Below, piece after piece: positions 1 to 20,398 of a DNA stretch of 64,000 nt. A model generated the notes under the pieces. It had not been told where the DNA came from, made no database searches, and was given only the letters and a program-made list of their open reading frames with translations. The stretch is from positions 2,111 to 66,110 of the forward strand of contig JAFGSG010000055.1 of NCBI GenBank assembly GCA_016934735.1, in the 5' to 3' direction. The translations under genes were made by a program, and so were the position numbers. Within the stretch, counting starts at the first letter, position 1; each line of letters opens with the position of its first letter. The DNA comes from Spirochaetota bacterium (GTDB lineage: Bacteria; Spirochaetota; UBA4802; JAFGDQ01).

Positions 1-541
1 CATTTATTTTGCAACTGCACATAAAAGGTTAATGTTCGGCAGGATTTTTCTACTCCCGGTAATGATTGCTTATAAATCAGGCATCTTGACTGCTACAAAA
101 ACCAGGGAAATCGCGGCAGGATTCGCGTTTAGAGGATGCCGCCTTGCGGATATTCAATCCCTCGGCCGGATATTCGCCGATGAAATAATACCTCAATATA
201 TCAGGCCTGAAGCATTCAAAAGAATTCAATGGCATAAATCAAAGGGAGATAAAATTGTTGTTGTATCCGCATCTCTTGACGTATATCTGAAGCACTGGTG
301 CGATAAGCATGAATTGGAACTTATCTGTACAAGTTTTGATGTTGATAACGGACTTATTGCGGGAAAATATTATCCCGGAGACTGCAGCGGCAAGGAAAAA
401 GCGAGACGTATTATTGATAAATATAATACAAAAGATTATGAAATTATTTATGCTTATGGGGATACGGCAGAGGATAAAGAGATGCTTGATCTGGCAAATA
501 TTAAGTACTTTCAATGGAAACAAATAAGCAATTATGACTAA
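1..541 (+). CDS. HAD-IB family hydrolase, 5'-partial (reading frame open to window start; catalytic DxD N-terminus not in window)
   Basis: C-terminal HAD core motifs (KIVVVSASLDVYL..., YAYGDTAEDKEMLDLAN); frame 2 open from nt 2. Confidence 0.5.
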   Translation, partial: IYFATAHKRLMFGRIFLLPVMIAYKSGILTATKTREIAAGFAFRGCRLADIQSLGRIFADEIIPQYIRPEAFKRIQWHKSKGDKIVVVSASLDVYLKHWCDKHELELICTSFDVDNGLIAGKYYPGDCSGKEKARRIIDKYNTKDYEIIYAYGDTAEDKEMLDLANIKYFQWKQISNYD

Positions 542-2654: not shown

Positions 2655-3374
2655 ATGAAGTCTTTGCTCTCGTACGAACTAAATAATGATAATCCCGAGA
2701 ATAAAAAACGCTTTATAAAAAATTTATTCGATGATATTGTGCCGACATACGATCTTTTAAATCATCTGCTTTCTTTCGGTACAGATAAGCTGTGGAGGCG
2801 CAGGATATTCCGGCTCATGCGTCCCGTCAAAGACGCGCGTGCTCTTGACCTGTGCTGCGGCACAGGCGATCTTTCATTATTGATACACAGGCATGGTGCG
2901 GGGGTTGTATCGCTCGATTTTTCGCTTAACATGCTAGCAAAAGGAAAGCAGAGAAAGACTCTGCGCGGGTATTGCGTGGCGGCTGATGCAAGCAATCTTC
3001 CTTTCCGTGACAGCTCATTCAACGCTGCAGCAATAGCTTTCGGAATACGCAATATTCCTGATTTGAAGAATTTCATAAGGGATGTGCACCGCGTGCTCGA
3101 ACCCGGCGGGGAGTTCGCGATTCTCGAGCTCGTTCGTCCCCGCAGCCGGTTTATAAAGGCAGTCTATGCAGTTTATCTTAATAAACTGCTTCCACTGATC
3201 GGCGGCCTTGTATCCGGGAAATGGACGGCGTATAAATATCTTTCAGGTACAATCAGGACTTTCGTTGATCCGGATGACCTGAAGCTGATGCTCGAGCAGG
3301 GCGGTTTCCGTAATGTGAAGCTGCATCCTCAGACATTCGGGGTAGCCTCTATAATAGTATGCGAGAAGGCGTGA
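2655..3374 (+). CDS. ubiE: Class I SAM-dependent methyltransferase, UbiE/MenG (demethylmenaquinone/ubiquinone) family
   Basis: N-terminal FDDIVPTYDLLNHLLSFGTDKLWRR and DLCCGTGDLS SAM motif, LEPGGEFAILE. Confidence 0.7.
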   Translation: MKSLLSYELNNDNPENKKRFIKNLFDDIVPTYDLLNHLLSFGTDKLWRRRIFRLMRPVKDARALDLCCGTGDLSLLIHRHGAGVVSLDFSLNMLAKGKQRKTLRGYCVAADASNLPFRDSSFNAAAIAFGIRNIPDLKNFIRDVHRVLEPGGEFAILELVRPRSRFIKAVYAVYLNKLLPLIGGLVSGKWTAYKYLSGTIRTFVDPDDLKLMLEQGGFRNVKLHPQTFGVASIIVCEKA

Positions 3375-3770: not shown

Positions 3771-4424
3771 ATGAACTTTAACTATAAACATATTATATGG
3801 GACTGGAACGGCACGCTTATTAACGACGCGGAGCTGTGCGTAGAGATCATTAATGAACTCCTCGGGAGGAGAAATATACAAGGCATCAGCCTGCGCGAGT
3901 ACCAGGATGTTTTTGATTTTCCGGTAATTAACTTTTACGAAAAAATTGGTTTTGATTTTTCCAAGGAGCCATTCCATATCCCTGCTGCGGAATATATCGA
4001 TGCCTACAACGCACGCAGATTCAGCTGCAGTCTGCATGACGGCGCGCTCGAACTTCTCTCGGTTTTTAAAAAAGCCGGCATAGCTCAATCCATACTGTCT
4101 GCATCAAAGCAGAGTTCGCTTGAAGAAGCAGTCGGCTACTATTCATTGGAGTCTTTTTTTGCACATGTCTGCGGACTGGACGACCATTACGCGAATGGTA
4201 AAATAGACATTGCGAAAGAATTAATAGGGCGTATAGGCGCAGATAACAGGTCGCTTTTGATTATCGGCGATACGACACATGATTATGAAGTTGCGCGGTC
4301 ATTAGGAGCAGGCTGCATTCTGATCAGCAGCGGGCATCACAGCAGGGAAAAGCTTGAACAGAGCGGAGCGCGTGTGGTTGACTCTATCGCGGAAATATCA
4401 AATGCGGCAGAAGTATCTGAATGA
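3771..4424 (+). CDS. HAD-IA family hydrolase (phosphatase-like)
   Basis: N-terminal IIWDWNGTL (DxDGT-type motif I variant), LIIGDTTHD motif IV. Confidence 0.6.
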   Translation: MNFNYKHIIWDWNGTLINDAELCVEIINELLGRRNIQGISLREYQDVFDFPVINFYEKIGFDFSKEPFHIPAAEYIDAYNARRFSCSLHDGALELLSVFKKAGIAQSILSASKQSSLEEAVGYYSLESFFAHVCGLDDHYANGKIDIAKELIGRIGADNRSLLIIGDTTHDYEVARSLGAGCILISSGHHSREKLEQSGARVVDSIAEISNAAEVSE

Positions 4425-6835
4425 AGGTCTCTCATCAGTTAAATACGCTTATTAAGCAAAGGTTGTTCTTTATTTCAGCAGGGACACTTTCCCTTTGCCT
4501 GGTATTATGGCTTCTGTTTTATTCGCTGTTTCTGCTGATGCCGTCCGTGTTCATAAAAGCAGGACTGATCGCGCCTTTCCCTTTGCTGATTATATTTACA
4601 TTATCCCTGATCATCTCTTTAAGTGTTTACCTTTATAGAATGCCTCTTTTCGGGAAAAGATTCTTTAATGAGATATTGCTCCCGCCTTACTCAGCGAATG
4701 ATCTTAAGTCGGCGCTTGAACTGGAAAGCGGAAAGAGTTATCCGCGAACAAAGGGGGACAGCTCTTTAGAAGAAAAAAATATATCGTCCTTTTTCTCCGG
4801 TCAATTCATTGAAAATGTTTCAGCACACATTAAGCTTGAAAAGAGAATATTCGCCGGCCTTGTTCCGGATATCAAACGTTTAACAGTATGCACGCTGATA
4901 ATTATTATATCTATGGTTCTTTCAATAATAAAAAGCGATCTCGTGTTCGATGTTTATTCAGCATTAAGAACAGGCCTTCCTGCGGAACTGATCGCTCTGG
5001 ATGCTCCTGTAAAGTACGAAAAGATTGAAGCAGTGATTACTCCCCCGGCTTATATTGAATCGGGAATAAGTACTGCTGTTGATTTAACTGTTCACGATAA
5101 AATTAAAGTAATGCAGGGTTCCGGTGTCTCAGTAAAAGGGATTTTAAACAATATAAAATCCGGTAAACTGATTCTTTCGACCGGTAAAGGACTGGAATAT
5201 TTTACTGCGGCAATTTTTGAAGAAAAATTTTTCGAAGCTGCCTTTCTTGCTCCGGCAAAAGGCGCTTTTGCCCTTGAATTCGAATTTATAAAACTGGTTT
5301 CGGGTAAATCACGGGGCAAAAGCAAAGTGTACACCATTGAAGCCCTTCCGGACCAGCCGCCCTCTATAAAGATTTTTTTTCCGCCATCTGTCCACAACGT
5401 GCTGTTCGGAAATCCGGTGGAAATAAATTTTACTGCTTCTGACGATTATGGCATACTGGAAATTTCACTTTATCACCGGAATCCTGAAGAAAACAGCGGA
5501 TATTACAGAGAGATTGTTGCGAGGTTCCCGAAAGACCCCAAAACAAATTATTCGGCAAGCCATGTATGGAATCCGGTTATCCGCGAAGGCGAGAAGATGG
5601 ATGAACTTGTTTATGATCCTGGCACGAAATCAGTAGAATATTTTCTTGAAGTTAAAGATATTAATATATATTCAGAAGGCGGTACGGCAAAAAGTGAAAC
5701 AAGATATGTGTATTTTACTGATGCTCTGGCAGACCTGAAAGAAGGAATAAACCTGATCCGGGAATTGATAGATGACGGGAAAAAATTGTTACAGTCACCC
5801 GGGAATAAAAGGATAGCGGAAAATTATAAAAAAAAATTAGCAAAAGCCGTTCAGGTTTTCAGCAAAGAACGGCAGGAAACTATGCCTCAGAGCACGCTTG
5901 TGCAGAAAACAAACGAGATGCTCAGTGTTTTTTATATCGACAGTTCCAAAGAACTAAAAGAATCCCTCAGAAGCTACATCGCTTATCTTGAAAGATTTCT
6001 TGTTTTTATGCAGCTGCTCCTGGAGACCGAGAGCGCGGCTTCTATAGACAAGGAGCTTTCAAGGAATGACGATATGAAAAGCAGCATGGATAATTCTCTG
6101 AAGCGGATAAGCCGCGCTGCTGAGCTCATGGAGAATGAGTTTAAAAAAGATATTGAAGAGATTGAAGAACTCTTAAGGAAAGGCGATCAGGCAGGCGCCA
6201 GGGCTAAGACACTTGAACTCCTTGACAAAATTAAAAAGCGTATGGAAGAGGAAATCGCAAAGTCAATGGCCATGTCGCAGAAAATCGCTGATGAAATGAA
6301 AGACAAACTCGATAAGATGGCAAAGCTTGCTTCGGAATTGCTAAAAAAGCAGGAAGCAAACAGGACGATTACAGATAAGGGAAATATAAAAGGCGCTTCT
6401 GCTGATCAGGAAGAAATAAACGAAGGCCTGCGCAGTCTGAGTGCGCAGACGGAGAAGCTCAGTTCCGAATATCCTTTTGTAATGTACTCTCTTAATTCCT
6501 ATGCCGGTGCGGCAAAGATATACGGGGCAAGGGCTTCTGAAGCTCTCAGCAAATCCGAACCCGGCAAATCATCAAAGGATCAATCCCGGGTCATTCAATA
6601 TCTTAATAACTTTATGAATGCCTCAAATCAGCAGAAGCAGCTTATGGAAGAGCTGGCAAAAGGGAATTTTGAAAGTATTATGCAGCGCGGATATACGAAT
6701 CGTTTTGTGCTTATACCGAAGGAAGCAGTCTATACAATACCGATAGACTATAAAAACAAGATCATAGAAATGAGCAAAGACAGAAGCAGGCTCACGAAAG
6801 AAAAAGAGGCATTCTGGCGGGATATTTTACAATGA
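4421..6835 (+). CDS. Large hypothetical membrane protein: N-terminal TM helices, central beta-rich region, long C-terminal Lys/Glu-rich coiled coil
   Basis: 804-aa ORF overlapping the upstream HAD stop by ATGA; hydrophobic N-terminus; no recognisable catalytic motif. Confidence 0.55.
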   Translation: MKVSHQLNTLIKQRLFFISAGTLSLCLVLWLLFYSLFLLMPSVFIKAGLIAPFPLLIIFTLSLIISLSVYLYRMPLFGKRFFNEILLPPYSANDLKSALELESGKSYPRTKGDSSLEEKNISSFFSGQFIENVSAHIKLEKRIFAGLVPDIKRLTVCTLIIIISMVLSIIKSDLVFDVYSALRTGLPAELIALDAPVKYEKIEAVITPPAYIESGISTAVDLTVHDKIKVMQGSGVSVKGILNNIKSGKLILSTGKGLEYFTAAIFEEKFFEAAFLAPAKGAFALEFEFIKLVSGKSRGKSKVYTIEALPDQPPSIKIFFPPSVHNVLFGNPVEINFTASDDYGILEISLYHRNPEENSGYYREIVARFPKDPKTNYSASHVWNPVIREGEKMDELVYDPGTKSVEYFLEVKDINIYSEGGTAKSETRYVYFTDALADLKEGINLIRELIDDGKKLLQSPGNKRIAENYKKKLAKAVQVFSKERQETMPQSTLVQKTNEMLSVFYIDSSKELKESLRSYIAYLERFLVFMQLLLETESAASIDKELSRNDDMKSSMDNSLKRISRAAELMENEFKKDIEEIEELLRKGDQAGARAKTLELLDKIKKRMEEEIAKSMAMSQKIADEMKDKLDKMAKLASELLKKQEANRTITDKGNIKGASADQEEINEGLRSLSAQTEKLSSEYPFVMYSLNSYAGAAKIYGARASEALSKSEPGKSSKDQSRVIQYLNNFMNASNQQKQLMEELAKGNFESIMQRGYTNRFVLIPKEAVYTIPIDYKNKIIEMSKDRSRLTKEKEAFWRDILQ

Positions 6836-6873: not shown

Positions 6874-7995
6874 TTATGCTTTCTCATTTTCTAAAACATC
6901 TGCAAGCAGAATATGCTCTCCGAGAGGTTTGGCGATATTTTTTAACTGCAGGGCAATATCGTTAATTTCCGGGCCTTTAAATTCCTTGTCTCTGTAAATA
7001 GTAATTATGCCAAGCAGGATATTCCTGTACAGTACCGGCAAGGTAACCTTTTTCCCTTTTTCCTGAAGAATTGTAGAAGAATTTTTCAGTTCTTCTGTTA
7101 TTCCCCGATTTATACTCATAGAATTAAATTCAGAATCGTCGATTTTTATAAGAGCCTTGCCTTTAAGTTCAAAAATTTTATTCAGTCTTGACTGATCTTC
7201 GCTCAGCAGATAGAAAGAGACAACTTCGGAATTATATTCACCGGATATATAATTAAAAAGATCATAAACATATCCTGTAAGGTAGTCAAGATTCAAAGTC
7301 GATTTGTCCGGCTCTCTGCCTGTATCCTTGTGTTCACTTATTTTTTTATCTTTGCCTGTTTTGTCCGGTTTTATTTTTTTTACGGACTCTTTTTTAATAA
7401 AACCGGCCGTCTTCCCGTTGGATGTTTTTGCCTTTTTGTTTAGTTTAATAGATATTAATGCTGTTATAATGATTGAAAAAATAGTGATTAACAATATTTC
7501 AAGAATTAGCTGGATGATAAGCTTTAAGCTGAGTTTATACGGAAAAACGATAAGGAGCTTACCGCCTGTAATATTATTGATAAAAATATAGAATCTGTTC
7601 TGATCGTAATATCTTATTACAAAATCATTCTTTTTATAAACTTTAAATTCATCCCGGATGAAGCCTTCTATCATCGCATCAAAAGTGATATTGGATCTTA
7701 TATATTTTTCATTTTTCATCGCCTTAAGAATTTTATTTTTTTTATCCGCAGCGGCAATTAAAGCAATTGAAGGAAATTTGTCTTTAATTAAAGAGTAATA
7801 TTTTGACAGGTCTTTATCATGCAGTTTTTTATCTTTTTCAAAACTGCTTATTGACAGAACTATTTTTTCGGATGTTAAAATAATGGCTTTAATGAATTGC
7901 TTTTCAAGCAATCCTGTTCTTAACGGAATATAAATAAAAATAATGAGTAAAGTTATGAATAAACATGTTATTATATTCTTTTTTTTTGATGTCAT
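6874..7995 (-). CDS. Hypothetical membrane protein with C-terminal GAF-like region
   Basis: Two hydrophobic segments, Lys-rich linker; C-terminus resembles a small-molecule-binding GAF fold only weakly. Confidence 0.45.
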   Translation of the reverse strand: MTSKKKNIITCLFITLLIIFIYIPLRTGLLEKQFIKAIILTSEKIVLSISSFEKDKKLHDKDLSKYYSLIKDKFPSIALIAAADKKNKILKAMKNEKYIRSNITFDAMIEGFIRDEFKVYKKNDFVIRYYDQNRFYIFINNITGGKLLIVFPYKLSLKLIIQLILEILLITIFSIIITALISIKLNKKAKTSNGKTAGFIKKESVKKIKPDKTGKDKKISEHKDTGREPDKSTLNLDYLTGYVYDLFNYISGEYNSEVVSFYLLSEDQSRLNKIFELKGKALIKIDDSEFNSMSINRGITEELKNSSTILQEKGKKVTLPVLYRNILLGIITIYRDKEFKGPEINDIALQLKNIAKPLGEHILLADVLENEKA

Positions 7996-11094: not shown

Positions 11095-11379
11095 ATGATT
11101 AATAATGAATTTGAAATAACAGTAACACCGAAATCTTCAAAATCAGAAGTATTTATTAACGGAGATAGTATAAAAATATATTTAAACTCACTTCCGGCGG
11201 ACGGGAAGGCGAACTCGGAATTAATTAAACTTTTATCGAAAGAGCTGCATATCGCGAAATCCGGTATTAGAATAATAAAAGGGGAAAAGAGCAGAAAGAA
11301 AAAAATTGCGATAGAGGGGTTTACAAAAGAGGAAATAATAAAAAGGTTCGCTGCTACAGTAAATCATCCAGCTCTTTAA
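11095..11379 (+). CDS. DUF167 / YggU family protein
   Basis: PADGKANSELIKLLSKEL...GEKSRKK motif typical of YggU. Confidence 0.7.
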   Translation: MINNEFEITVTPKSSKSEVFINGDSIKIYLNSLPADGKANSELIKLLSKELHIAKSGIRIIKGEKSRKKKIAIEGFTKEEIIKRFAATVNHPAL

Positions 11380-13207
11380 GGATCGAGTCTTTCTTTTGCT
11401 TTTGATTATTTTTGATCATTCTTTCTTCAACAGGAGGGCGCTCTTTAATCTCCTGTTTTTCTTTTAAAAGATTCGAATCAAAAATAGTCTCTTCTCCTTC
11501 ATTGAACTCAGGATTTCCGCACAGGTCACCCTCAAGACTGAGCCTGTAAATGAAGGCCATAGCGTAGTTATATGCGCAGTCTATTGCTTCGCATACATTT
11601 TTGTTGTTAATTATTTTATCGCCTTCTATTGCCGTCTCGAAACTAATTATATCCTCCGGATTAACTACTATGTTTTTTCCGCTGTTCATATCGTCTATAA
11701 GTGTTTTTAATTCCCTGCACAATTTTTCCATAAACATTTTTATCTGGGCTCTTGCCTCTGCGGCGATATGATTTTTTTCTTTATTGAGGGCTGAAAGCCT
11801 GTTGGAATATTCAATGAATTGAGTGCTGCTGATCGGCTTTTCACTTTTTAATTTGTCAAACGCGGCCAGGGTATTTGCATAGTCGAGCAATCTGTTTTTG
11901 CATTTTCCGATTTCATTGTAAATGTTCGCGAATTTATTTTTGAAATCAAGATTGTCAGAGGATTTAAAAATTGTATTATATTTTATTTTATTTGTTGTGA
12001 GAATAAATGAAAATTCTATGTCGAATTCATTGAAAAGCAGGTTCGCAATATAAATTTTATCTTTTGTATTAACGTTTTTAAATATTCTGTTTTTTGTGTA
12101 GATTTCACCGCTTTTCTCTATATCGATTTTACTCATAAGTTCCAGGCCTTTTTGCACCGGGTCAGGAATGACCTCGTTTTGATCTTCAGCCTTTTCCTTT
12201 CCGTCATCTTTGAAGGAAAGATTGTCATCAAACTGAAGATCAAAAGTCTTTGGAGGACTCTTCTTCCTTTTTCCCGGCATATCTTCCGGGAAGATGGAGA
12301 TTGTATCTTCAATATCTTTGTCGGATATGAATATTCTTTTTTCGTAGCAGCACATGAGCCAGTACAGCCTTGGATATAATTTATTAAAAATTATATAAAT
12401 ATTATTTTTTACCTTTCTTTTGTTTGAAGTAAAAAAAGTAAATTTTTCTTTTTCAAGCCGGTTTTGAAGTTTGAGCGCCCTGTCAAGTGCGATTAAAATA
12501 AGATCCTTATGCTGATTTAGAGGATATAATTTTCTGAATATTTTTGTAAACGGTTCCCTGAGTTCTTTAATTTCCTGAGGAACATCGGGGAAATTATAAA
12601 AGTGTTCCAGTATTTCATTTGAAGTAGTTCTGTCGTAAACATTTGAAAGGAGTTCGATAAGTTCAAAATACACCGGATGAATTTTATCTAATGAGTCGAT
12701 TATTCTCTGCCCGTTTCGCATGTTTTGTTTAAAAATATTAAAGTATATTGTCTGCATCGACAAAAGACACGGATTATATTCTTCATCATATTTTTTTATA
12801 AATTTCGGCATGAAATAATAGCCGGTGAAATCCGCGACATTCATTAAAAACAACCGGAGCCTGATTCTAAATCGCTGTAAAATAAGGCGAAATTGACTTA
12901 TTTCATTGATGTTAAATGATTGGCTCGCAGGTTTGATTTTTTCTTTTGTTTCTAAAGGATATTTAGGCGATGTTTTTTTTTGCGCATTTATGTCCGTGTA
13001 TTGAAACTTATTCTGTTTTTTTTCAGCTTCAAGCCTGTTCCTGAATCGTTTCTGCAGATCCCGGTCAAAATCCGAAAGCTTTCGTTCTTCCTTTTCGTTA
13101 ATTACTTCGCCGCCGGCTTCGACAAATTCGTTAAATAATTTTTTTCTGGTATGCTCGTCCAGCGATGTAACGCCTATATTTTGTTTGGTTTTCTCTACTT
13201 TTTTCAT
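11354..13207 (-). CDS. Hypothetical 617-aa Lys/Asn-rich protein, no recognisable domain
   Basis: Long uninterrupted ORF with RBS context; no Walker, nuclease or TM motifs seen. Confidence 0.5.
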   Translation of the reverse strand: MKKVEKTKQNIGVTSLDEHTRKKLFNEFVEAGGEVINEKEERKLSDFDRDLQKRFRNRLEAEKKQNKFQYTDINAQKKTSPKYPLETKEKIKPASQSFNINEISQFRLILQRFRIRLRLFLMNVADFTGYYFMPKFIKKYDEEYNPCLLSMQTIYFNIFKQNMRNGQRIIDSLDKIHPVYFELIELLSNVYDRTTSNEILEHFYNFPDVPQEIKELREPFTKIFRKLYPLNQHKDLILIALDRALKLQNRLEKEKFTFFTSNKRKVKNNIYIIFNKLYPRLYWLMCCYEKRIFISDKDIEDTISIFPEDMPGKRKKSPPKTFDLQFDDNLSFKDDGKEKAEDQNEVIPDPVQKGLELMSKIDIEKSGEIYTKNRIFKNVNTKDKIYIANLLFNEFDIEFSFILTTNKIKYNTIFKSSDNLDFKNKFANIYNEIGKCKNRLLDYANTLAAFDKLKSEKPISSTQFIEYSNRLSALNKEKNHIAAEARAQIKMFMEKLCRELKTLIDDMNSGKNIVVNPEDIISFETAIEGDKIINNKNVCEAIDCAYNYAMAFIYRLSLEGDLCGNPEFNEGEETIFDSNLLKEKQEIKERPPVEERMIKNNQKQKKDSILKELDDLL

Positions 13208-13390
13208 TTTTAATTTTCCGGAATCTTTTTGCTGCTTTTAAAAATTTTGTATCAATATATCGGTAGATTAATTACGAAGATTTTAGAAGGATTTTCAAAC
13301 CTTCATATATGTTAGGTAGATATGAATGATTTTGTCAATTATAAAATAATGGATCAGCTAAAATATGGCAATCAATAATAAAAAATTTCT

Positions 13391-13425
13391 TGACAAATAA
13401 TTAACTTTTTATACTTTGATATCAT
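13391..13425 (+). promoter_or_regulatory. Candidate sigma70 promoter (TTGACA, 15-17 nt spacer, TATACT) driving the leader upstream of 13688
   Basis: cttgacaaataattaactttttatactttg. Confidence 0.35.
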
Positions 13426-13524
13426 TAGTTGAAATTATTAATATTAACTCATTAAGGTAAAAGCAGAAAATGATCAATAATCAATCCATGGCTCACTCCT
13501 ATTATTATTTTTTTTACTACTCAA

Positions 13525-13605
13525 CAGTATGAGGACTGCTCATGGAATGATTGATTTCTATAGTCGATATTAAGCCGTGGGCAGAAACCCACGGCTTTTT
13601 TATTT
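13525..13605 (+). promoter_or_regulatory. Conserved leader element copy A: ...atgaggactgctcatggaatga...tcgatattaa followed by intrinsic terminator (stem 13574-13581/13588-13595, T-tract 13596-13601); candidate attenuator/riboswitch
   Basis: About 80% identical to copy B at 15108-15190; gctcatgg (13538-13545) can pair with the terminator 5' arm ccgtgggc (13575-13582) using two GU wobbles, giving an antiterminator alternative. Confidence 0.55.
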
Positions 13606-13687
13606 TTTAGGCCTTTTAAAAAAATAAAGAAAGTAAATAGACTTTCTTAGAATTAATTAAAATATAAATAAAACAACAGAGGTAGGT

Positions 13688-14935
13688 ATGGCAGAAGAAA
13701 AAAAAGTTGCAAGAAAGAAGCTTAGAACAGCTGAAGCTATGGGAAAATTTATGGCAGATTATTATTATGAACTGGATAATGCTGCAAAGACCGGTGAGAA
13801 AAAGATTGCGTGGTGTACAAGCGTTGGTCCGGCTGAAATATTAAGAGCTATGGGATTTCTTGTTTATTTCCCTGAGACGCATTCAGCAATGCTCGGCAGT
13901 TCAAGAATGGCCACTGATTATATTCCATATGCAAATGCCCTGGACTATTCTCCCGAAGTATGTTCGTATATGACTGCTGACATCGGAGCTTTTTTACAGG
14001 GTGTGACCCCTTTATCAAAAGCGTTTCCAGGAATACAAAGCATACCTAAACCGGATGTTCTGGTATTTAACACAAATCAATGCAGGGACGTTCGTGACTG
14101 GTTTTCCTGGTTTGCGAGAAGGTTCAATGTTCCGATCGTTGGAGTTGACGGGAATAGACATGTAAAAGTAGTGACTGATACTATTGTTGAGTCAAATGCA
14201 AAGCAAATGGAAAATCTTATTCCGCCTCTTGAAAAAGTAATTGGTAAAAAATTTGATATTGATAAACTTAGGGAAGCAGTAGCGCTTTCACGGAAATGTT
14301 CTAACCTATGGAAGGATATTCTTGAAGTTGCATCAGTTAAACCGTCTCCTCTGACATTCTTTGACGGCTGCACGCTTATGGGGCCGGCAGTTGTTGCCAG
14401 AGGGACACAGCCCGCTGTAGATATATATGAGCAGCTTCTCGAGGAGATGAAGGAAAGGGTTAAAGATAAGGAAGGGGCTGTTGAGAACGAAAAGTTCAGG
14501 ATTTACTGGGACGGAATGCCTGTTTGGGGAAGATTGAGAGCACATTCTGAATTATTCGCAGGATTGAACGCGAATGTGCTCGCATCCACGTATTGCAGCT
14601 CATGGATATTCACCGCTTTAGATCCGGCTGAACCGTTCAAAAGCATGGCAAGGGCATATAGTGAGCTTTTTAATTCCAGGTCTGACGAGTATAAGGAAGA
14701 ATATATCAAAGAAAAAATAAAATTATATGGTATAGACGGTATAATCTTCCATGATGCAAAGACATGTCCGTATAATACAAACTGCCGTTACGGTATGTCA
14801 AAAAGACTTGAGAATGAAACCGGTATACCAAGCCTTATCATCAATGGTGATTTAAATGACCTTCGTCTGGTTTCGGATGAGCAGATGAAAACCAATGTCG
14901 AAGCATTTATTGAACAGCTCGCGGAGAACAAATAA
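13688..14935 (+). CDS. 2-hydroxyacyl-CoA dehydratase family protein (HgdB/BcrB-like beta-type subunit), single-subunit double-cubane-cluster-protein-like
   Basis: KIAWCTSVGPAEILRAMGFLVYFPE N-terminal signature of the HGD-D family; 415 aa; multiple conserved Cys; no paired alpha subunit adjacent. Confidence 0.7.
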   Translation: MAEEKKVARKKLRTAEAMGKFMADYYYELDNAAKTGEKKIAWCTSVGPAEILRAMGFLVYFPETHSAMLGSSRMATDYIPYANALDYSPEVCSYMTADIGAFLQGVTPLSKAFPGIQSIPKPDVLVFNTNQCRDVRDWFSWFARRFNVPIVGVDGNRHVKVVTDTIVESNAKQMENLIPPLEKVIGKKFDIDKLREAVALSRKCSNLWKDILEVASVKPSPLTFFDGCTLMGPAVVARGTQPAVDIYEQLLEEMKERVKDKEGAVENEKFRIYWDGMPVWGRLRAHSELFAGLNANVLASTYCSSWIFTALDPAEPFKSMARAYSELFNSRSDEYKEEYIKEKIKLYGIDGIIFHDAKTCPYNTNCRYGMSKRLENETGIPSLIINGDLNDLRLVSDEQMKTNVEAFIEQLAENK

Positions 14936-15107
14936 AATATTATATTGTAGTTAAAAATAAATATGAATATGATAATAATAAAAATTAAATTTTTATTACG
15001 AACTTTTATTTTTGTCGATGTGATGAGACAGTTTACTAATGTGAGAAATTTTATAGCTGAAGAACTGAACTCAATGATTTATTTTTATTATTATTACTAT
15101 TATTATC

Positions 15108-15190
15108 CTTATGGATGAAGACTGCTCATGGAATGAAATTCTATATAATCGAATTAAAACCGTGGGCGGGAGCCCACGGTTTTTTTTATT
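15108..15190 (+). promoter_or_regulatory. Conserved leader element copy B with intrinsic terminator (stem 15158-15165/15172-15179, T-tract from 15180)
   Basis: ggatgaagactgctcatggaatgaaattctatataatcgaattaaaaccgtgggcgggagcccacggttttttttt; the loop differs from copy A while the stem is preserved. Confidence 0.55.
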
Positions 15191-15349
15191 TATAGGGTCG
15201 TTTCAAAAGGAAGTTAACTGAGGTTTCTCAGCGGTTATAAATAATCATCACAATAATAGAGGTTAATAAAGCTGAGATAAAGAGTAAATGAAAGCATTGT
15301 TTGAACAAATCATAAAAATTAAAAAATTAAATCAAAAGGAAAAAATAAT

Positions 15350-16285
15350 ATGGAAACTACATTAACAAAAATTAAACCGATACAACATACTGAACATTTT
15401 TTTCAGCTGGGAACCCCATTCTTCCCCGTGTACTTGTCCCTTGGAAAAGAGGCAATGCTCATAGAGGGCGGTACCGGAGGAACCCTTGATCTTGTCAAGG
15501 ATCAGATCGGGGAACTGGGACTTGATATCAATAAAATAAAGTATATTGCTCTCACACATTCACATGGAGATCATATCGGGCTTGTTCCGCATTTGATTCC
15601 GGAATGGAAACATGTTAAACTGGCGGCAAGTCCCAAGTCTGTGGATTTTTTAAAAGATCCGAATGTGATTAAACAGTTTGTAGAGATGGATAATTTTATT
15701 GCCGAGAGATTGGTGTCCCTGGGCGAGACATATTCCAAACCTCCTAAACTTGAAAAATATGAATTTAATGTTGGAAAAGTAATCGATGAAGGGGATACTC
15801 TGGATTTAGGCGGCGGTGTCAGATGGAGGGTTGTCAGGATAACCGGCCATTCTCCGTGCCAGATCGCATATTTTGAAGAGAAAGAAGGCACTTTGGTTGT
15901 CGGCGACGGCACAGGGTTGTATTTTCCTAGGATAGACGCTTTCTGGCCCGAGTATTTTTTATCACTTGAACAGTACTGTGCAAGCATGCACAAGCTGTCT
16001 GCTTTTAATGGTAAGAGGGTTGCTTTGAGCCATTTCGGAGTGGTTGACGGAAATTCCAGAGAATTTATAAAAAAGTCGTTGAAAGCTACAGAGGCATATC
16101 ATAATGAGATGATTGAAAGAATCAGGAACGGAGAAGACCCGAATGTGGTTGCACTGGAGAAAACAAAATGGGTACTGAGCAATCATAATTATATGTCGTT
16201 TGAGATAACCGAACAGATGGCCAGACTGCTCATAAAACGTTCGCAGAAAGATGCGGATAAGTCAGGGATGTTTGCCGGTTTGTAA
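15350..16285 (+). CDS. MBL-fold metallo-hydrolase
   Basis: THSHGDHIG (HxHxDH) zinc motif, later His/Asp ligands. Confidence 0.75.
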   Translation: METTLTKIKPIQHTEHFFQLGTPFFPVYLSLGKEAMLIEGGTGGTLDLVKDQIGELGLDINKIKYIALTHSHGDHIGLVPHLIPEWKHVKLAASPKSVDFLKDPNVIKQFVEMDNFIAERLVSLGETYSKPPKLEKYEFNVGKVIDEGDTLDLGGGVRWRVVRITGHSPCQIAYFEEKEGTLVVGDGTGLYFPRIDAFWPEYFLSLEQYCASMHKLSAFNGKRVALSHFGVVDGNSREFIKKSLKATEAYHNEMIERIRNGEDPNVVALEKTKWVLSNHNYMSFEITEQMARLLIKRSQKDADKSGMFAGL

Positions 16286-16296
16286 AATATTATACT

Positions 16297-16340
16297 GACG
16301 CAATGCATTACACTAATGATGCGATTCATTGCGTCTTTTC
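16297..16340 (+). terminator. Hairpin gacgcaatg...cattgcgtc followed by TTTTC between the MBL gene and the activase (possible attenuator/partial terminator)
   Basis: 9-bp perfect stem 16297-16305/16327-16335 read from sequence. Confidence 0.4.
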
Positions 16341-16369
16341 GCAAAACAATACAGAATATGGAGGCCTTC

Positions 16370-17146
16370 ATGCAGTCAAAGCAAGTATACGTTGGAGTTG
16401 ACATCGGATCTTCAAGAACAAAAGTAGCAGTGTTAGATGCGGATAAAAAATTTATAGGACGCGCTATTTTACACTCGGGTACGGATTTCGGCGGCACGGC
16501 TGAAGTCTGTCTTGAGTCTGCATTGAAGATGGCAGATGCTTCCACATATGACATTATTAAAACAATATCGACCGGCTATGGCAGAAAGAACGTTTCGTTT
16601 TCGAATGATACGAAAACCGAGATTGCATGCCATTCCGCAGGCTGTTATTATTATTTTCCCGAAGCAATAACAGTGATCGATATAGGCGGTCAGGACAATA
16701 AGATCATAAAGATAGATAAAAACGGCAGACGTATTAATTTTAAGATGAATAGAAAATGTGCAGCCGGGACTGGAGCTTTTCTGGAAGAGATGTCCATGCG
16801 GCTCAATATACCGCTTGAGGACATGAATGATCTGGCAAGTCAGTCCACTGACATGGTTAAACTCGGCAGTTTCTGCACGGTTTTCTCGGCCACTGAAGTG
16901 CTTGAAAACATCCGGCATGGGAAAAAAGTACCCGATATTGTTAAGGGTCTTTTCTATTCAGTGATCAAACGCGTTCTCGAGATGGATTCTCTTACCGATA
17001 ATGTAGTAATGACAGGCGGGGTCGTTGCACATAACCTCTATCTGGTCTCCATGACAGAAGAAATACTTAAGAGAAAGATATTAGTCCCGGAGTATCCCCA
17101 GTTTACAGGAGCCATTGGCGCAGCTCTCTTTGCTATGCAGGAATAA
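16370..17146 (+). CDS. CoA-substrate-specific enzyme activase (BadF/BadG/BcrA/BcrD-type ATPase; HgdC / DCCP-reductase-like)
   Basis: MQSKQVYVGVDIGSSRTKVAV, IDIGGQDNKII, CAAGTGAFLE; GGAGG RBS at 16350-16354 favours start 16370 over the ORF-track start 16316. Confidence 0.8.
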   Translation: MQSKQVYVGVDIGSSRTKVAVLDADKKFIGRAILHSGTDFGGTAEVCLESALKMADASTYDIIKTISTGYGRKNVSFSNDTKTEIACHSAGCYYYFPEAITVIDIGGQDNKIIKIDKNGRRINFKMNRKCAAGTGAFLEEMSMRLNIPLEDMNDLASQSTDMVKLGSFCTVFSATEVLENIRHGKKVPDIVKGLFYSVIKRVLEMDSLTDNVVMTGGVVAHNLYLVSMTEEILKRKILVPEYPQFTGAIGAALFAMQE

Positions 17147-17184
17147 TTACCCTGATGTAAAATCATACACCAAATTAAAATATA

Positions 17185-17250
17185 ATACCCCGGTTACGCC
17201 GAAGGTGGAAGCCGGTGCGGTAGCACCGGGGGCTTGCTCTGAGAAATTTA
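17185..17250 (+). ncRNA. GC-rich structured element copy 1 (taataccccgg-ttacg-ccgaaggtgg-aa-gccgg-[ggtgc ggta gcacc]-ggggg) in the 5' leader of the acyl-CoA ligase
   Basis: Roughly 65% identical to the reverse complement of 21365-21445; hairpin ggtgc/gcacc here corresponds to ggta/tacc in copy 2 (compensatory change). Confidence 0.45.
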
Positions 17251-17417
17251 ATTAAAAATTATATTATACGGTATGTTTAATGTGTAGACATCGAGTTAAT
17301 ATGTTCAGTCGGTTTTTTTTATTGCATTTTTAGGGCTATTTAAAAACATGTATATGAAAAATAAATATTTTTATTATAAATCATTTTACGTATTAAATTC
17401 GTCACAGGAGTAACAAT

Positions 17418-18950
17418 ATGAACGTAGCTACAAATTTAGAGATGTCAGCAAGATATTTCCCTAAGAATCCGGCACTAAGCATGGATGGCAGGGAGATTAC
17501 TTATGCGCAGTTTAACGAAGAAGCAAACCGTGTCGCAACTGCTTTTTTAAAACTCGGCATGAAGGCAGGAGACCACATTGGTATTTGCGCGCCTAATTCG
17601 CCAGAATGGCTTATTCTATACTTCGGCATATTGAAAATGGGTGCAATTGCAATAACACTCGGATTTCAGTTAAGCCCGGATGAGCTTCGTATGCTTCTCG
17701 GACATGCCAAACCTAGAATGCTTTTTACCACAGATGCTCGGTTAAAAGATATTGAAAGCCTCAGGGGCGGAAACGGGATTGAGAAAGTCATATGCCCGAA
17801 CGGCGATATGTCCTATGAAAAGCTGGTTGCTATGGGCAGTGCAAAATTCGAAGCAGTTTATCGTGACCGTGATGATACGGCCTCTGTACTTTATACCGGA
17901 GGCACTACAGGTATACCCAAAGGTGTAATGACTACTCATCTTAATATCAATACTTCAGCACATAATGTAGCATACAGCGAAAGGTCAACCGAAAAAGACA
18001 GGGCTTTGTGCTTTTTGCCGTTTAATCATGTATTTGGGCAGATGCATGTTATGAATGCGACGGTTTTCAGTGCAGGCTGTCTCGAGATACTGTCTGCTCC
18101 GGATATGGATAAAATGCTGGGTCTTATAAAAGCCGGCAGAATAACAAAACTTTTTTCAGTTCCTACAGTTTATACCCGTCTGTTAACTTTACCGGATGTG
18201 AGACAACTGATGTCAAAAGTCCGTTACTGTTTTTCTGCAGGAGCTGCAATGGCAGCCGAGATAGTCCGTCAATGGAAAGAATCGACAGGGCTTTTGATAT
18301 TTGAAGGTTACGGACTCACCGAGACAGCCTCGGCCGTAACATATAATCATTATTATGAACATGTTATTGGTTCCATAGGCGCCACTGTTCCGGGAATTGA
18401 GACTCAGATCAGAGATATCTCTACCGGAGAAGCTCTGGCGGTTGGGAAAGAAGGCGAGATCTGCATCAGAGGGAATAATATCATGAAAGGCTATCTGAAT
18501 AATCCTCAGGCAACGTATGATACATTCTGGCATCTGGATAAGGACAAGAAAAGACATGAAGACCAGTGGTTTAGATCCGGAGATGTGGGATATATGGACG
18601 AGCGCGGGTATTTTTATATTGTTGACCGCCTGAAAGACATGATAATTACCGGCGGAGAGAATGTATACTCAACAGAAGTAGAAGAGGCTATCTATAAAAA
18701 GCCGGAAATTCAGGAATGCGCAGTAATAGGCATACCTGACAGGGAATGGGGAGAAAAGGTAGCTGCCTTTATGATAGTTAAACCCGGAATGAATGTGACA
18801 GGCGATGAGATGAAAGCATTTCTGAAAAAAACGCTGGCACCATTCAAGGTTCCCAAGATTTATGAGTTTGTAAAGGATTTCCCCAGAACCGGTAAAGGTT
18901 CTATTCTAAAACGCGAAATAAGGGCACAGTTTACCGGCGGGAAGAAGTAA
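17418..18950 (+). CDS. AMP-dependent acyl-CoA synthetase/ligase (long-chain-fatty-acid--CoA ligase-like)
   Basis: YTGGTTGIPKGV AMP-binding motif, GYGLTET, later invariant Lys in FPRTGKGSILKRE. Confidence 0.85.
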   Translation: MNVATNLEMSARYFPKNPALSMDGREITYAQFNEEANRVATAFLKLGMKAGDHIGICAPNSPEWLILYFGILKMGAIAITLGFQLSPDELRMLLGHAKPRMLFTTDARLKDIESLRGGNGIEKVICPNGDMSYEKLVAMGSAKFEAVYRDRDDTASVLYTGGTTGIPKGVMTTHLNINTSAHNVAYSERSTEKDRALCFLPFNHVFGQMHVMNATVFSAGCLEILSAPDMDKMLGLIKAGRITKLFSVPTVYTRLLTLPDVRQLMSKVRYCFSAGAAMAAEIVRQWKESTGLLIFEGYGLTETASAVTYNHYYEHVIGSIGATVPGIETQIRDISTGEALAVGKEGEICIRGNNIMKGYLNNPQATYDTFWHLDKDKKRHEDQWFRSGDVGYMDERGYFYIVDRLKDMIITGGENVYSTEVEEAIYKKPEIQECAVIGIPDREWGEKVAAFMIVKPGMNVTGDEMKAFLKKTLAPFKVPKIYEFVKDFPRTGKGSILKREIRAQFTGGKK

Positions 18951-18985
18951 ATATTAAAATAAGTATAAATTCATTCAAAGATAAT

Positions 18986-19016
18986 AAAGCCTGCGGTTTT
19001 CCCGCAGGCTTTATTA
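18986..19016. terminator. Bidirectional intrinsic terminator (gcctgcgg tttt c ccgcaggc flanked by A and T runs) between convergent ligase and DAHP synthase genes
   Basis: 8-bp GC stem read from sequence with T-tract on both strands. Confidence 0.7.
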
Positions 19017-19039
19017 TTGGTTTATTTAATATATTAAAT

Positions 19040-20398
19040 TCATCTTTTATTATAATTGTTTTTTACCCGCGCTTTTTTTAGAAACTCTGAAATTAAAAAC
19101 GCAAGCTCAAGGGCCTGGTTGGCATTCAGGCGGGGATCGCATCTTGTAAAATATTTTTCAGTCAGCTTATTTTCGGTAATTTCTTCTGCTCCACCGATGC
19201 ACTCTGTTACATTCTGGCCGGTCATCTCACAGTGGATACCGCCTGCATAGGTTCCTTCCGCGTAATGAATCTCAAAGAAATTTTTCACTTCTTCCAGTAT
19301 GTGGTCGAATGAACGTGTTTTTATCCCTTTATGAGTCTTTACTGTATTGCTATGCATGGGATCAGTGCACCACACCACATTGCGGCCTTCCTTTTTTACG
19401 CGTTTTATTAATGGGGGAAGTTTTTTTGTAATAAGATCGCCGATCCGCGCAATTATAGTAAGACGGCCTGCTTCGTTTTGCGGATTAACCAGGTCGATTA
19501 GACGTATTAATTCATCAGGATCCATTGAGGGTCCTGCTTTAATACCTATTGGATTTTTAATTCCTCTAATGAACTCTATGTGAGCCTTGTCTGATTGACG
19601 GGTCCTGTCGCCTACCCATAGCATGTGAGCTGAGTAGTCATACCAGTCTCCGGTGAGGGCATCCTGCCGGGTTAATGCCTCTTCATAGTTCAGGAGAAGT
19701 GCCTCATGAGAGGTGTACAATGTTGTTTCACGTATGCTCGGCATGTCTACGCCGCATGCTTCCATGAATGCAAGCGCTTCTCCGATGCGGTCTGCAAGAT
19801 TCTGATAACGCTCGCCTAACGGGCTTTCCTTGACAAACTCAAGGTTCCATTGATGCACCTGATGCAGGTCTGCCAGGCCGCCTTTTGTGAACGCTCTGAG
19901 CAGATTAAGCGTTGTGGCAGACTGATTATATGTCTGGATTAACCGGTTTGGATCAGGAGTGCGAGCATCTTTAGTGAAAGTAATGTCGTTTACTGCATCT
20001 CCGAAATAGCTAGGAAGTTCAACGCCGTCAATGATTTCAGTTTTACTTGAGCGCGGTTTGGCAAACTGGCCTGCTAACCGGCCGACTTTTACAATCTGAC
20101 AGCTTCCCGCGTATGTCAGAACTACAGCCATTTGAAGGATTACTTTACAGGTATCCTGTATGTTTGTTGCGTTAAAATCGTCAAAGCTTTCGGCACAGTC
20201 TCCGCCCTGCAGGAGAAAAGCCTCCCTGCCGTTGACTTTAGCTAATTGTTTTTTTAATTCCTGGACCTCATTAGAAAATACCAGAGGAGGAAATTTAGTA
20301 AGCCGGGACTCGGACCTGCTGAGTTTTGAAGGATCAGGATATTCCGGCTTCTGTTCAATTGGTTTATCGCGCCAGCTTGAAGGAGTCCATTTATTCAT
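19040..20398 (-). CDS. Class II 3-deoxy-7-phosphoheptulonate (DAHP) synthase
   Basis: [12 protein letters not shown] and [11 protein letters not shown]...[15 protein letters not shown] collinear with class II (AroAII, M. tuberculosis AroG-type) enzymes. Confidence 0.85.

Follow-up and report, generated by a model that had tools for sequence, protein, structure and literature searches.

A stand-alone, catalytic-type member of the 2-hydroxyacyl-CoA dehydratase family in a spirochaete gene module with predicted Tyr/Phe attenuators

RESULTS

A four-gene module on a 64-kb window of a Spirochaetota genome

In a 64-kb stretch of contig JAFGSG010000055.1 (assembly GCA_016934735.1) from a bacterium of the phylum Spirochaetota, hereafter the window, four co-oriented open reading frames (ORFs) encode a protein with the HGD-D domain of 2-hydroxyacyl-coenzyme A (CoA) dehydratases and benzoyl-CoA reductases (BCRs), a metallo-beta-lactamase (MBL)-fold hydrolase, an activase, and an acyl-CoA ligase (Table 1). 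Gene identities were assigned from Pfam and NCBIfam profile matches. A preliminary description of this DNA had named the same four genes, and the ORFs as well as the Pfam matches (HGD-D, Lactamase_B, BcrAD_BadFG, and AMP-binding) agree with it. Our data show that the HGD-D protein is of the catalytic type and has no partner subunit gene near it, and the leaders that precede the HGD and MBL genes are predicted Tyr/Phe attenuators.

The same HGD-MBL-activase-ligase order was found in a relative whose ligase is 84% identical, where it is likewise followed by a convergent gene for a class II 3-deoxy-D-arabino-heptulosonate 7-phosphate (DAHP) synthase. A tblastn search of the four module proteins against the window revealed no paralogs. 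Placing the MBL hydrolase and the CoA ligase in a CoA-thioester module, as had been suggested, is borne out by this recurring order and by the tight linkage of the MBL gene to the HGD family. Collectively, the single HGD-D gene and the activase, MBL, and ligase genes are supported as one co-oriented module acting on a CoA thioester.

Table 1. Features of the module locus in the window, followed by leaders found upstream of HGD or MBL genes in other genomes (positions of the latter refer to the respective locus)
Feature	Position	Strand	Remarks
Candidate sigma-70-like promoter of the HGD unit	13416..13444	+	TTGATA-17-TAATAT; consensus scan only
Leader peptide ORF 1, MINNQSMAHSYYYFFYYSTV, then stop	13470..13532	+	7 consecutive Tyr/Phe codons at 13500-13520 (YYYFFYY)
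Attenuator 1 (predicted)	13536..13603	+	Region 2 CUGCUCAUGGA at 13536-13546; region 3 GCCGUGGGCAG at 13574-13584
HGD-D protein, 415 amino acids (aa)	13688..14935	+	Pfam HGD-D PF06050
Leader peptide ORF 2 (minimal), MIYFYYYYYYYPYG, then stop	15074..15118	+	10 Tyr + 1 Phe of 14 residues (YFYYYYYYYPY)
Attenuator 2 (predicted)	15120..15190	+	Region 2 as in attenuator 1, GACUGCUCAUGGAAUGA at 15120-15136; terminator hairpin 15156-15183, then U-run
MBL-fold metallo-hydrolase, 311 aa	15350..16285	+	Lactamase_B
Activase/archerase, ASKHA-type [4Fe-4S] ATPase, 258 aa	16370..17146	+	BcrAD_BadFG, TIGR00241
Aromatic-rich upstream ORF, MYMKNKYFYYKSFYVLNSSQE, then stop	17348..17413	+	Ends 4 nt short of the ligase ATG; overlap with the ligase Shine-Dalgarno sequence; no terminator after it
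AMP-forming acyl-CoA ligase, 510 aa	17418..18950	+	AMP-binding + AMP-binding_C
Bidirectional intrinsic terminator	18980..19018	both	Common to the ligase (+) and the convergent class II DAHP synthase
Class II DAHP synthase	19040-20398	-	Convergent to the ligase; synteny kept in one relative
L012 leader	213-360		Peptide MITNQSRAYTYTYYYFYYNKIGLLMD
L014 leader	7795-7935		Peptide MTNFQTMAFTFSNFKFTG
L015 leader	42-200		Peptide MKALLRALNYYYYYYYYYLNS
L071 leader (deltaproteobacterial metagenome-assembled genome)	5768-5925		Peptide MIKANQTIGTLYYYFYYFYGRGLLMV
L094 leaders	1281-1531 and 2777-3194		Both window-type peptides

The HGD-D protein is of the catalytic alpha type

The 415-aa protein matches PF06050 with 234 bits (cut-off, 28.4; E-value, 4.8e-69) over residues 46-411, so that the match spans the whole domain and not merely the N-terminal signature described before. 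Its best NCBIfam model is the HadB equivalog NF052455, yet the score of 216.9 bits stays below the cut-off of 750. Relatives of solved structure are HadB (2e-46), MbdO (6e-38), BzdO (7e-24), and, over the C-terminal half only, the double-cubane cluster protein (DCCP; 5e-5). A profile built from 35 family sequences (A1) lifted HadB to 2.7e-62 in a search of the PDB and left HadC, BzdN, and MbdN undetected. The AlphaFold2 model (predicted local distance difference test, 76; predicted template modeling [TM] score, 0.81) gave TM scores of 0.81-0.83 with HadB, 0.78-0.80 with MbdO and BzdO, ~0.70-0.73 with DCCP, and 0.64-0.67 with HadC, BzdN, and MbdN.

At the residue level, C92, C132, and C360 align with cysteines of HadB and with Cys95, Cys128, and Cys380 of BzdO, the three ligands of its catalytic [4Fe-4S] cluster, and W42 and E63 align with BzdO Trp46 and Glu65 (PMC11971306). 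These five residues are invariant in 120 homologs and near-universal in relatives at 26-57% identity. Because of this catalytic signature, the matches to HadB, MbdO, and BzdO, and the ranking of the TM scores over the beta subunits, we assign the protein to the catalytic alpha type (HadB, BzdO, and MbdO) rather than to the HgdB-like beta type under which it had been introduced. C92, C132, and C360 are the predicted ligands of one substrate-binding [4Fe-4S] cluster. Four further family cysteines (C43, C204, C303, and C366) bring the number of conserved cysteines to seven. Neither finding that would have undone the initial interpretation was made: the best homologs are not canonical two-subunit enzymes, and the Cys ligands are present. 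Three long HGD relatives, P0242 (728 aa), P0246 (603 aa), and P0271 (768 aa), carry N-terminal extensions of 180-360 aa; two of them lack the cluster cysteines, and they may be fusions or degenerate paralogs.

The protein had also been likened to DCCPs, which are represented in NCBIfam by the double_cubane model NF040772 (InterPro cluster IV of Jeoung et al.). It reaches 68.1 bits with this model, against a cut-off of 350, and only with its C-terminal half. The DCCP hallmark is the motif CX19CX18-19CX29CX166-170CX32-34CX32C, whose seven cysteines include six cluster ligands (PMC7317905). The spacings of the conserved cysteines in our protein (48, 39, 71, 98, 56, and 5) do not match this motif, and DCCP membership was rejected on score and motif. 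What stands of the likeness is the layout, with a single catalytic gene and an activase gene, and the presence of cysteines at five of the six double-cubane ligand positions: C43, C92, C132, C303, and C360 fall at motif positions 1, 3, 4, 5, and 7. Their counterparts in the DCCP-family reference, YjiM of E. coli MG1655, are C40, C78, C108, C272, and C337; the hhalign alignment behind this comparison covered residues 125-411 only, at 79% probability, and positions 1-3 were aligned by eye. Position 2 is occupied by the catalytic-type Glu63, and position 6 is Asn/Ile. HadB and BzdO retain positions 3, 4, and 7 only.

As for the extra cysteines, C204 and C366 are confined to the narrow family, whereas C43 and C303 are frequent solely within the clade of ≥36% identity, with no strict coupling between them. 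The notion that C366 or C204 might substitute as the sixth double-cubane ligand was weakened by close relatives in which C366 is Ser or Asn (Ser in P0108) and C204 is Ala. Judging from these alignments, a full second sub-cluster on the extra cysteines is unlikely.

A widespread family without a neighboring partner subunit

The top 120 homologs of the 415-aa protein (69-91% identity) come from Spirochaetota, Desulfobacterota, and Chloroflexota. A scan of one genome per species placed carriers (64-78% identity) in at least 586 species of bacteria and archaea, among them, at 64-75% identity, Ignavibacterium, Geobacteraceae, Syntrophobacteraceae, and two archaeal metagenome-assembled genomes (MAGs). 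The family is also encoded in the closed genomes CP070697, CP070746, CP070637, and CP070814 and in a cultured bacterium, Desulfoprunum benzoelyticum DSM 28570 (L037). For gene neighborhoods, we sampled 80 non-redundant loci from at least six phyla with up to 8 kb on each side, in which ORFs were called and clustered and the frequent clusters were annotated with Pfam.

To our knowledge, all characterized 2-hydroxyacyl-CoA dehydratases and class I BCRs depend on a pair of homologous subunits, of which one is catalytic and the other stores electrons. No second HGD-D gene was found in the window by tblastn or by Pfam searches of the other large ORFs, nor in any of the 80 loci, where the family profile was run with filters off against 1,125 neighbor ORFs and Pfam was applied to the ten most suspicious ones. 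The lone subunit noted at the outset is a property of the sampled family as well as of this locus. The sole extra HGD-D match in the 80 loci is a 129-aa C-terminal fragment in Ignavibacterium CP070637 (L076, 4354-7034); it is followed by a 474-aa BcrAD_BadFG protein and an activase-like ORF and lies upstream of a normal activase-HGD pair, and the region may be left over from a second system.

Within 5 kb of the HGD gene, the 80 loci contain genes for an activase (62/80), an ApbA/PanE-type 2-oxoacid reductase (48/80), an AMP-forming ligase (47/80), an ADP-forming acyl-CoA synthetase (ACD; 43/80), IorA (28/80), IorB (24/80), a PaaK-like ligase (22/80), thiolase (19/80), an ACT-domain protein (12/80), enoyl-CoA hydratase (ECH; 9/80), and MBL (7/80). 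The most frequent order is ECH, IorA, IorB, PaaK, ApbA, activase, HGD, ACD, ligase, and thiolase. Two operon types emerge: type A combines an NAD(P)H-dependent 2-oxoacid reductase with an ATP-conserving ADP-forming synthetase, and type B combines a 2-hydroxyacid-oxidizing flavoenzyme with a hydrolase. The window is a variant of type B in which the ligase takes the place of GlcD/CCG. In five Desulfobacterales loci (L020, L025, L033, L036, and L038), genes for a carbon-nitrogen hydrolase, a TetR regulator, and a 1092-aa fused IcmF-like B12 acyl-CoA mutase come after the HGD-ligase pair, which hints that the CoA ester may have another fate downstream.

The activase, the MBL hydrolase, and the ligase

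The activase ORF can start at 16316 or 16370, and the latter start is favored by a GGAGG 5 nt upstream and by the length of the orthologs (256-260 aa). The product matches BcrAD_BadFG (7.7e-50) and scores 228 bits with TIGR00241, "acyl-CoA dehydratase activase" (cut-off, 125). Its relatives include HadI (5.5e-54), MbdQ (9e-52), HgdC (8e-47), and DCCP-R (1e-34), and its cluster cysteines in KCAAGTG and SFCTVF align with those of HadI. The TIGR00241 score and the HadI match uphold its designation as the cognate activase, and its gene is probably co-transcribed with that of the MBL hydrolase.

The MBL protein (Lactamase_B, 3.4e-18) has as its best solved relative PqsE (2e-15, residues 14-219), the 2-aminobenzoylacetyl-CoA thioesterase of Pseudomonas. 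Its binuclear site, HxHxDH-H-D-H, is complete (H70, H72, D74, H75, H167, D186, and H228) and conserved in at least 97% of 121 aligned sequences; with the NCBIfam GloB model it scores 32.5 bits, well below the cut-off of 200.8. The family is small, with 357 detectable members, and adjoins a single HGD-D gene in every neighborhood sampled, including those of three homologs at 48-50% identity. Its usual companions are a GlcD-like FAD dehydrogenase, a Fer4/CCG iron-sulfur subunit, and the activase. PqsE and glyoxalase II hydrolyze thioesters, which for glyoxalase II are (R)-2-hydroxyacyl thioesters, and the window protein shares with them the MBL fold, a length of ~300 aa, and the full binuclear metal motif; unlike them, it belongs to a distant, distinct family whose genes are linked to the single HGD-D gene. 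Distant similarity and context together suggest that it is an acyl-CoA thioesterase.

The ligase carries AMP-binding (301 bits) and AMP-binding_C (67 bits) domains, has orthologs at 82-84% identity, and reached no cut-off of the NCBIfam equivalogs. These orthologs sit on contigs that equal in length the ones bearing MBL orthologs. Its nearest solved relatives are malonyl-CoA synthetase, feruloyl-CoA synthetase, FadD13, and 4-coumarate-CoA ligases.

Predicted Tyr/Phe leader-peptide attenuators upstream of the HGD and MBL genes

The leaders of the HGD and MBL genes (13440-13690 and 15026-15262) are paralogous over ~215 nt, and both are kept at ~95% identity in a relative whose HGD protein is 91% identical. 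Each contains a short ORF, and among the 757 small ORFs of the window only these two encode seven consecutive aromatic residues. Leader ORF 2 could be extended from in-frame ATGs at 15023 and 14963; an identical peptide is encoded in L094. In leader 1, region 1 (UCCAUGGCU, 13485-13493) lies within the leader ORF, and a terminator scan located a hairpin at 13572-13597 followed by a U-run. The minimum free energy of leader 1 is -39.6 kcal/mol (z = -5.4), and a predicted 2:3 antiterminator (-21 kcal/mol) is mutually exclusive with the terminator (-18 kcal/mol).

Leaders of other genomes occupy the same position upstream of HGD or MBL, with the conserved core and a terminator after each (Table 1). 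In all, predicted attenuators were found in six genomes, five of Spirochaetota and one deltaproteobacterial MAG, and the core of attenuator 1 is conserved in five further leaders. The invariant segment CUGCUCAUGG begins 4 nt past the leader stop codon and can pair either with region 1 in the leader ORF or with CCGUGGGCAG, the 5' arm of the terminator. Each of the six leaders that were folded is predicted to form the 2:3 pairing, of 9-10 bp and -15 to -23 kcal/mol, to the exclusion of the terminator (-16 to -20 kcal/mol).

From sequence and folding, we predict that these leaders are ribosome-mediated transcription attenuators of the trp/phe type. A ribosome at the leader stop codon would mask region 2 and cause termination, and one stalled on the Tyr/Phe codons would mask region 1 and allow antitermination. 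The runs of Tyr/Phe codons thus predict higher expression under a shortage of charged tRNA-Tyr/Phe. Like the pheL-pheA, trpL, and hisL attenuators of Proteobacteria, the leaders combine a short ORF bearing a run of regulatory codons, 1:2, 2:3, and 3:4 hairpins, an intrinsic terminator, and a stop codon placed so that a terminating ribosome masks region 2. They differ in that the peptides are dominated by Tyr, that they occur in Spirochaetota and a deltaproteobacterial MAG, and that they precede a radical-enzyme module instead of a shikimate-pathway gene. The preliminary description had ascribed a leader of its own to each of the four genes. This holds for HGD and MBL; upstream of the ligase there is a short partial match only, and upstream of the activase none. 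It had missed the Tyr/Phe attenuator nature of the leaders, which ties the module to aromatic amino acids.

An Rfam search of positions 13000-19200 (E ≤ 1) returned no family covering the leaders, only sub-threshold Thr/Leu leader and MicF look-alikes driven by the terminators; the sub-threshold Thr_leader hits at 18980..19018 were likewise discarded as mere terminator look-alikes. We found no paper on this Tyr/Phe attenuator in the literature. A scan for the exact 17-mer of the leader core in metagenome_contigs gave 116 stretches, and since none of those examined (L099-L178) had a terminator, they were taken for chance matches. No leader peptide was found upstream of the DAHP synthase gene of the window.

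Several smaller features lie near these elements. The aromatic-rich ORF MYMKNKYFYYKSFYVLNSSQE directly upstream of the ligase could reflect translational control by Tyr/Phe or chance in AT-rich DNA, and a degenerate copy of the post-terminator sequence stands just upstream of it, at 17310-17345. Between the activase and the ligase there is also a GC-rich hairpin, CCCCGGT...ACCGGGG, that lacks a T-run (17188-17236). A small ORF beginning with MKALFEQIIKIKKLNQKEKII, at 15288-15350 between attenuator 2 and the MBL start, is out of frame with MBL and conserved in L094. In L071, a class I DAHP synthase gene directly followed by an MBL paralog (503-2525) precedes the attenuator-MBL-activase-HGD operon by 3.4 kb; ahead of this DAHP synthase gene there is a small ORF with FFWWWCW (a weak observation).

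Other features of the window

An alternative TTGACA for the HGD unit is located at 13390-13395. A 617-aa Lys/Glu/Asn-rich ORF (11354-13207, minus strand), oriented divergently to the HGD leader, matches neither Pfam nor NCBIfam models; ORFs at 4421-6835 (plus strand, 804 aa) and 6874-7995 (minus strand, 373 aa) have no Pfam match at 1e-5. According to Pfam searches of the large ORFs, the remainder of the window is of a housekeeping nature (ruvB, the dcw cell-wall/division cluster, and signaling proteins). No homologs of ApbA, IorAB, ACD, ECH, thiolase, or GlcD/CCG occur elsewhere in the 64 kb, and no enoyl-CoA reductase, Etf, or CoA-transferase gene was found there.

DISCUSSION

With moderate confidence, we propose that the locus encodes a stand-alone, probably homo-oligomeric aryllactyl-CoA/cinnamoyl-CoA (de)hydratase module that serves Tyr/Phe supply under the control of Tyr/Phe attenuators. 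The activase, of the HadI/HgdC type, would inject one low-potential electron into the HGD-D enzyme at the cost of ATP, and the latter would interconvert an (R)-2-hydroxyacyl-CoA and a 2-enoyl-CoA by a ketyl-radical mechanism, the most likely pair being (4-hydroxy)phenyllactyl-CoA and (4-hydroxy)cinnamoyl-CoA. The ligase would load cinnamate or p-coumarate onto CoA, the radical enzyme, run in reverse, would hydrate the ester to the (R)-2-hydroxyacyl-CoA, and the PqsE/glyoxalase-II-like MBL protein would hydrolyze the thioester, pulling the reaction forward and freeing (R)-aryllactate. Aryllactate could then be oxidized to arylpyruvate by the GlcD/CCG dehydrogenase, which is encoded in the same operon in relatives, and transaminated to Phe or Tyr. 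The gene identities, the lack of a partner gene, the conservation of the family, the neighborhood counts, and the layout and conservation of the attenuators are observations; from them we infer the homo-oligomeric state, the aromatic substrate, the direction of flux, and the thioesterase activity. The hydration direction is preferred because the predicted control is induced by starvation, because type-B operons contain a GlcD/CCG oxidizer and a hydrolase, and because the ligase resembles feruloyl- and 4-coumarate-CoA enzymes. The DAHP synthase genes near the module (class II in the window and in a relative, class I in L071) fit an aromatic-supply neighborhood, and the module probably supplies aromatic amino acids rather than degrading them.

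Among characterized systems, HadBC/HadI of Clostridioides difficile (PDB 3o3m and 4eht) provides the best sequence and fold match for both the HGD-D protein and the activase, with the three [4Fe-4S] cysteines, the Trp, and the Glu conserved and an activase that is likewise of the ASKHA type. The window protein is, however, only ~25% identical, has four extra conserved cysteines, and lacks a HadC-type partner gene; a CoA ligase and an MBL protein stand in for the CoA-transferase, and Tyr/Phe attenuation replaces the setting of a fermentation operon. FldBC is a heterodimer in complex with a CoA-transferase. With FldBC and the phenyllactate genes of Desulfococcus, which are themselves predictions, the module shares the proposed pair phenyllactyl-CoA/cinnamoyl-CoA; unlike the Desulfococcus cluster, the window has the MBL gene and the attenuators and is devoid of reductase, Ior, and thiolase genes. 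BzdO and MbdO of class I BCRs (PDB 8s02 and 9g87) agree in fold and in the equivalents of Cys95/128/380, Trp46, and Glu65, and MbdO also has a cysteine at the C43 position. They differ in that BzdO His131 is Val in the window protein, that no [8Fe-9S]-bearing BzdN/MbdN partner is present, and that BCRs use two ATPase subunits against the single activase gene here.

The main rival to a supply role keeps the same chemistry and reverses its purpose. In this account, which we regard as a minority possibility with some substance, the enzyme would be a catabolic, forward-running dehydratase of aryllactyl-CoA or another amino-acid-derived 2-hydroxyacyl-CoA, activation of the 2-hydroxy acid would fall to the ligase and release of the enoate or the reduced product to the MBL protein, much as in the clostridial reductive Stickland branch or the phenylpyruvate/phenyllactate cluster of Desulfococcus. 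HadB, the closest solved relative, is a fermentative dehydratase, and the ortholog operons carry genes for 2-oxoacid reductase, ligases, enoyl-CoA hydratase, and thiolase. An operon of D. multivorans is annotated as iorA3B3, ACT, "putative phenylpyruvate reductase," "R-phenyllactate dehydratase activator," "subunit alpha" (416 aa), and fadD4, the alpha subunit being a "predicted R-phenyllactate dehydratase alpha"; phenyllactate is a growth substrate of this organism, and proteins encoded in this cluster and the adjacent one were reported to be formed specifically on phenylacetate/phenylpyruvate (PMC5109826). This operon agrees in gene order and lengths with the commonest arrangement of the orthologs, and its Dmul_24850 product would be orthologous to the window protein. 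Degradation is, however, poorly served by Tyr/Phe attenuators, which switch on under Tyr/Phe limitation, the wrong signal for it; moreover, spirochaete-type loci have the GlcD/CCG oxidizer instead of an NAD(P)H reductase and the hydrolase instead of an ATP-conserving ADP-forming synthetase, and the window has none of the enoyl-CoA reductase, Etf, and CoA-transferase genes.

Three further explanations appear improbable to us. An ATP-dependent reductase of the DCCP kind, in which the extra cysteines hold a second Fe-S (sub)cluster and ATP is used stoichiometrically for reduction rather than dehydration, would account for the layout of one catalytic gene plus activase shared with DCCP/DCCP-R of Carboxydothermus (PDB 6eno and 7yyl) and YjiM/YjiL of E. 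coli, for the cysteines at five of the six ligand positions and the seven conserved in the family, and for an activase about as near to the BCR subunit MbdQ as to HadI. It is at odds with the low double_cubane score and the weak DCCP match in the PDB, with the non-Cys sixth ligand position and the catalytic-type Glu at position 2, with the loose co-conservation of C43 and C303 and the Ser in place of C366 in P0108, with the invariance in the family of the Trp that fills the lost sub-cluster site in BzdO, and with neighbors that are CoA-ester enzymes. The characterized hadBC, hgdAB, fldBC, lcdAB, and bzdNO all keep both subunit genes adjacent, which counts against a standard two-subunit dehydratase with an unlinked beta-subunit gene. 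The analysis covered just 64 kb of this genome, and the family profile is blind to distant beta-type subunits (HadC and BzdN went unmatched in the PDB search); even so, an adjacent beta-type gene occurs in 0/80 loci, the D. multivorans table has a "subunit alpha" only (PMC5109826), and the study of strain BzS1 (2026) calls its FldB-like gene, 30% identical to FldB, "singular," so that we hold an unlinked beta subunit to be unlikely as well. Nor do we give much credence to the MBL protein being an oxygen/NO (nitric oxide)-binding or scavenging di-iron protein (ODP-like) that guards or senses for the O2-labile radical enzyme in place of a thioesterase. Its strict linkage to an O2-sensitive enzyme and the sub-threshold Pfam ODP matches of the window protein (24.6 bits; cut-off, 27.2) and of many homologs speak for such a role, whereas the better PqsE match, the canonical hydrolase site HxHxDH...H...D...H, and its position in the operon slot that other lineages give to the ADP-forming acyl-CoA synthetase speak for a hydrolase.

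Several points weigh against the aromatic-supply module as we propose it. The dehydratase model leaves the four extra conserved cysteines (C43, C204, C303, and C366) unexplained. The partner search extended over the 64 kb and flanks of up to 8 kb, so that a beta-type gene could lie far off. In Desulfobacterales, type-A operons have a catabolic look and would work in the forward, dehydrating direction, and the sole proteomic study found reports that the proteins of the matching cluster are induced by phenylacetate/phenylpyruvate as growth substrates; the match to D. multivorans itself is one of length and gene order. The solved relatives of the ligase also include malonyl- and fatty-acyl-CoA enzymes, and the ligase is ~30% identical to those of type-A operons. 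No gene for a 2-hydroxyacid dehydrogenase, an aminotransferase, or Ior was found in the 64-kb window. The attenuator mechanism is a prediction, and substrate and direction are deduced from context.

The family has already been noticed and provisionally named in the literature, in which we found neither its enzymology nor a remark on the absent beta subunit. Likewise, literature searches on homodimeric dehydratases, on a connection between MBL proteins and dehydratases, on Tyr leader peptides, and on the salvage of cinnamate to Phe yielded no description of this system. A bolder version of our proposal, which we offer tentatively and do not expect to be the likelier outcome, is that the protein is a homodimeric ketyl-radical enzyme evolutionarily between the homodimeric double-cubane proteins and the heterodimeric dehydratases and BCRs. 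It would have kept two of the three distal-subcluster cysteines and would, in spirochaetes, run backwards as an ATP-primed cinnamoyl/p-coumaroyl-CoA hydratase; with the MBL protein as a dedicated 2-hydroxyacyl-CoA thioesterase and with GlcD/CCG, it would form an undescribed salvage pathway from phenylpropanoids or aryl-lactates to Phe/Tyr under a new attenuator.

A catalytic-type subunit that stands alone in at least 586 species bears on ideas about how this family evolved from homodimeric double-cubane proteins, which its mechanism would test. A function would also be assigned to a widespread "dehydratase family protein" of anoxic sediments, for which the Tyr/Phe attenuators provide a concrete physiological handle on the module. 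If the proposal is true, the MBL-fold acyl-CoA hydrolase family would receive its first physiological role, and the metabolism of anaerobes would gain a salvage pathway, in which aromatic pools are fed from plant cinnamates or microbial aryl-lactates, together with a new regulatory leader.

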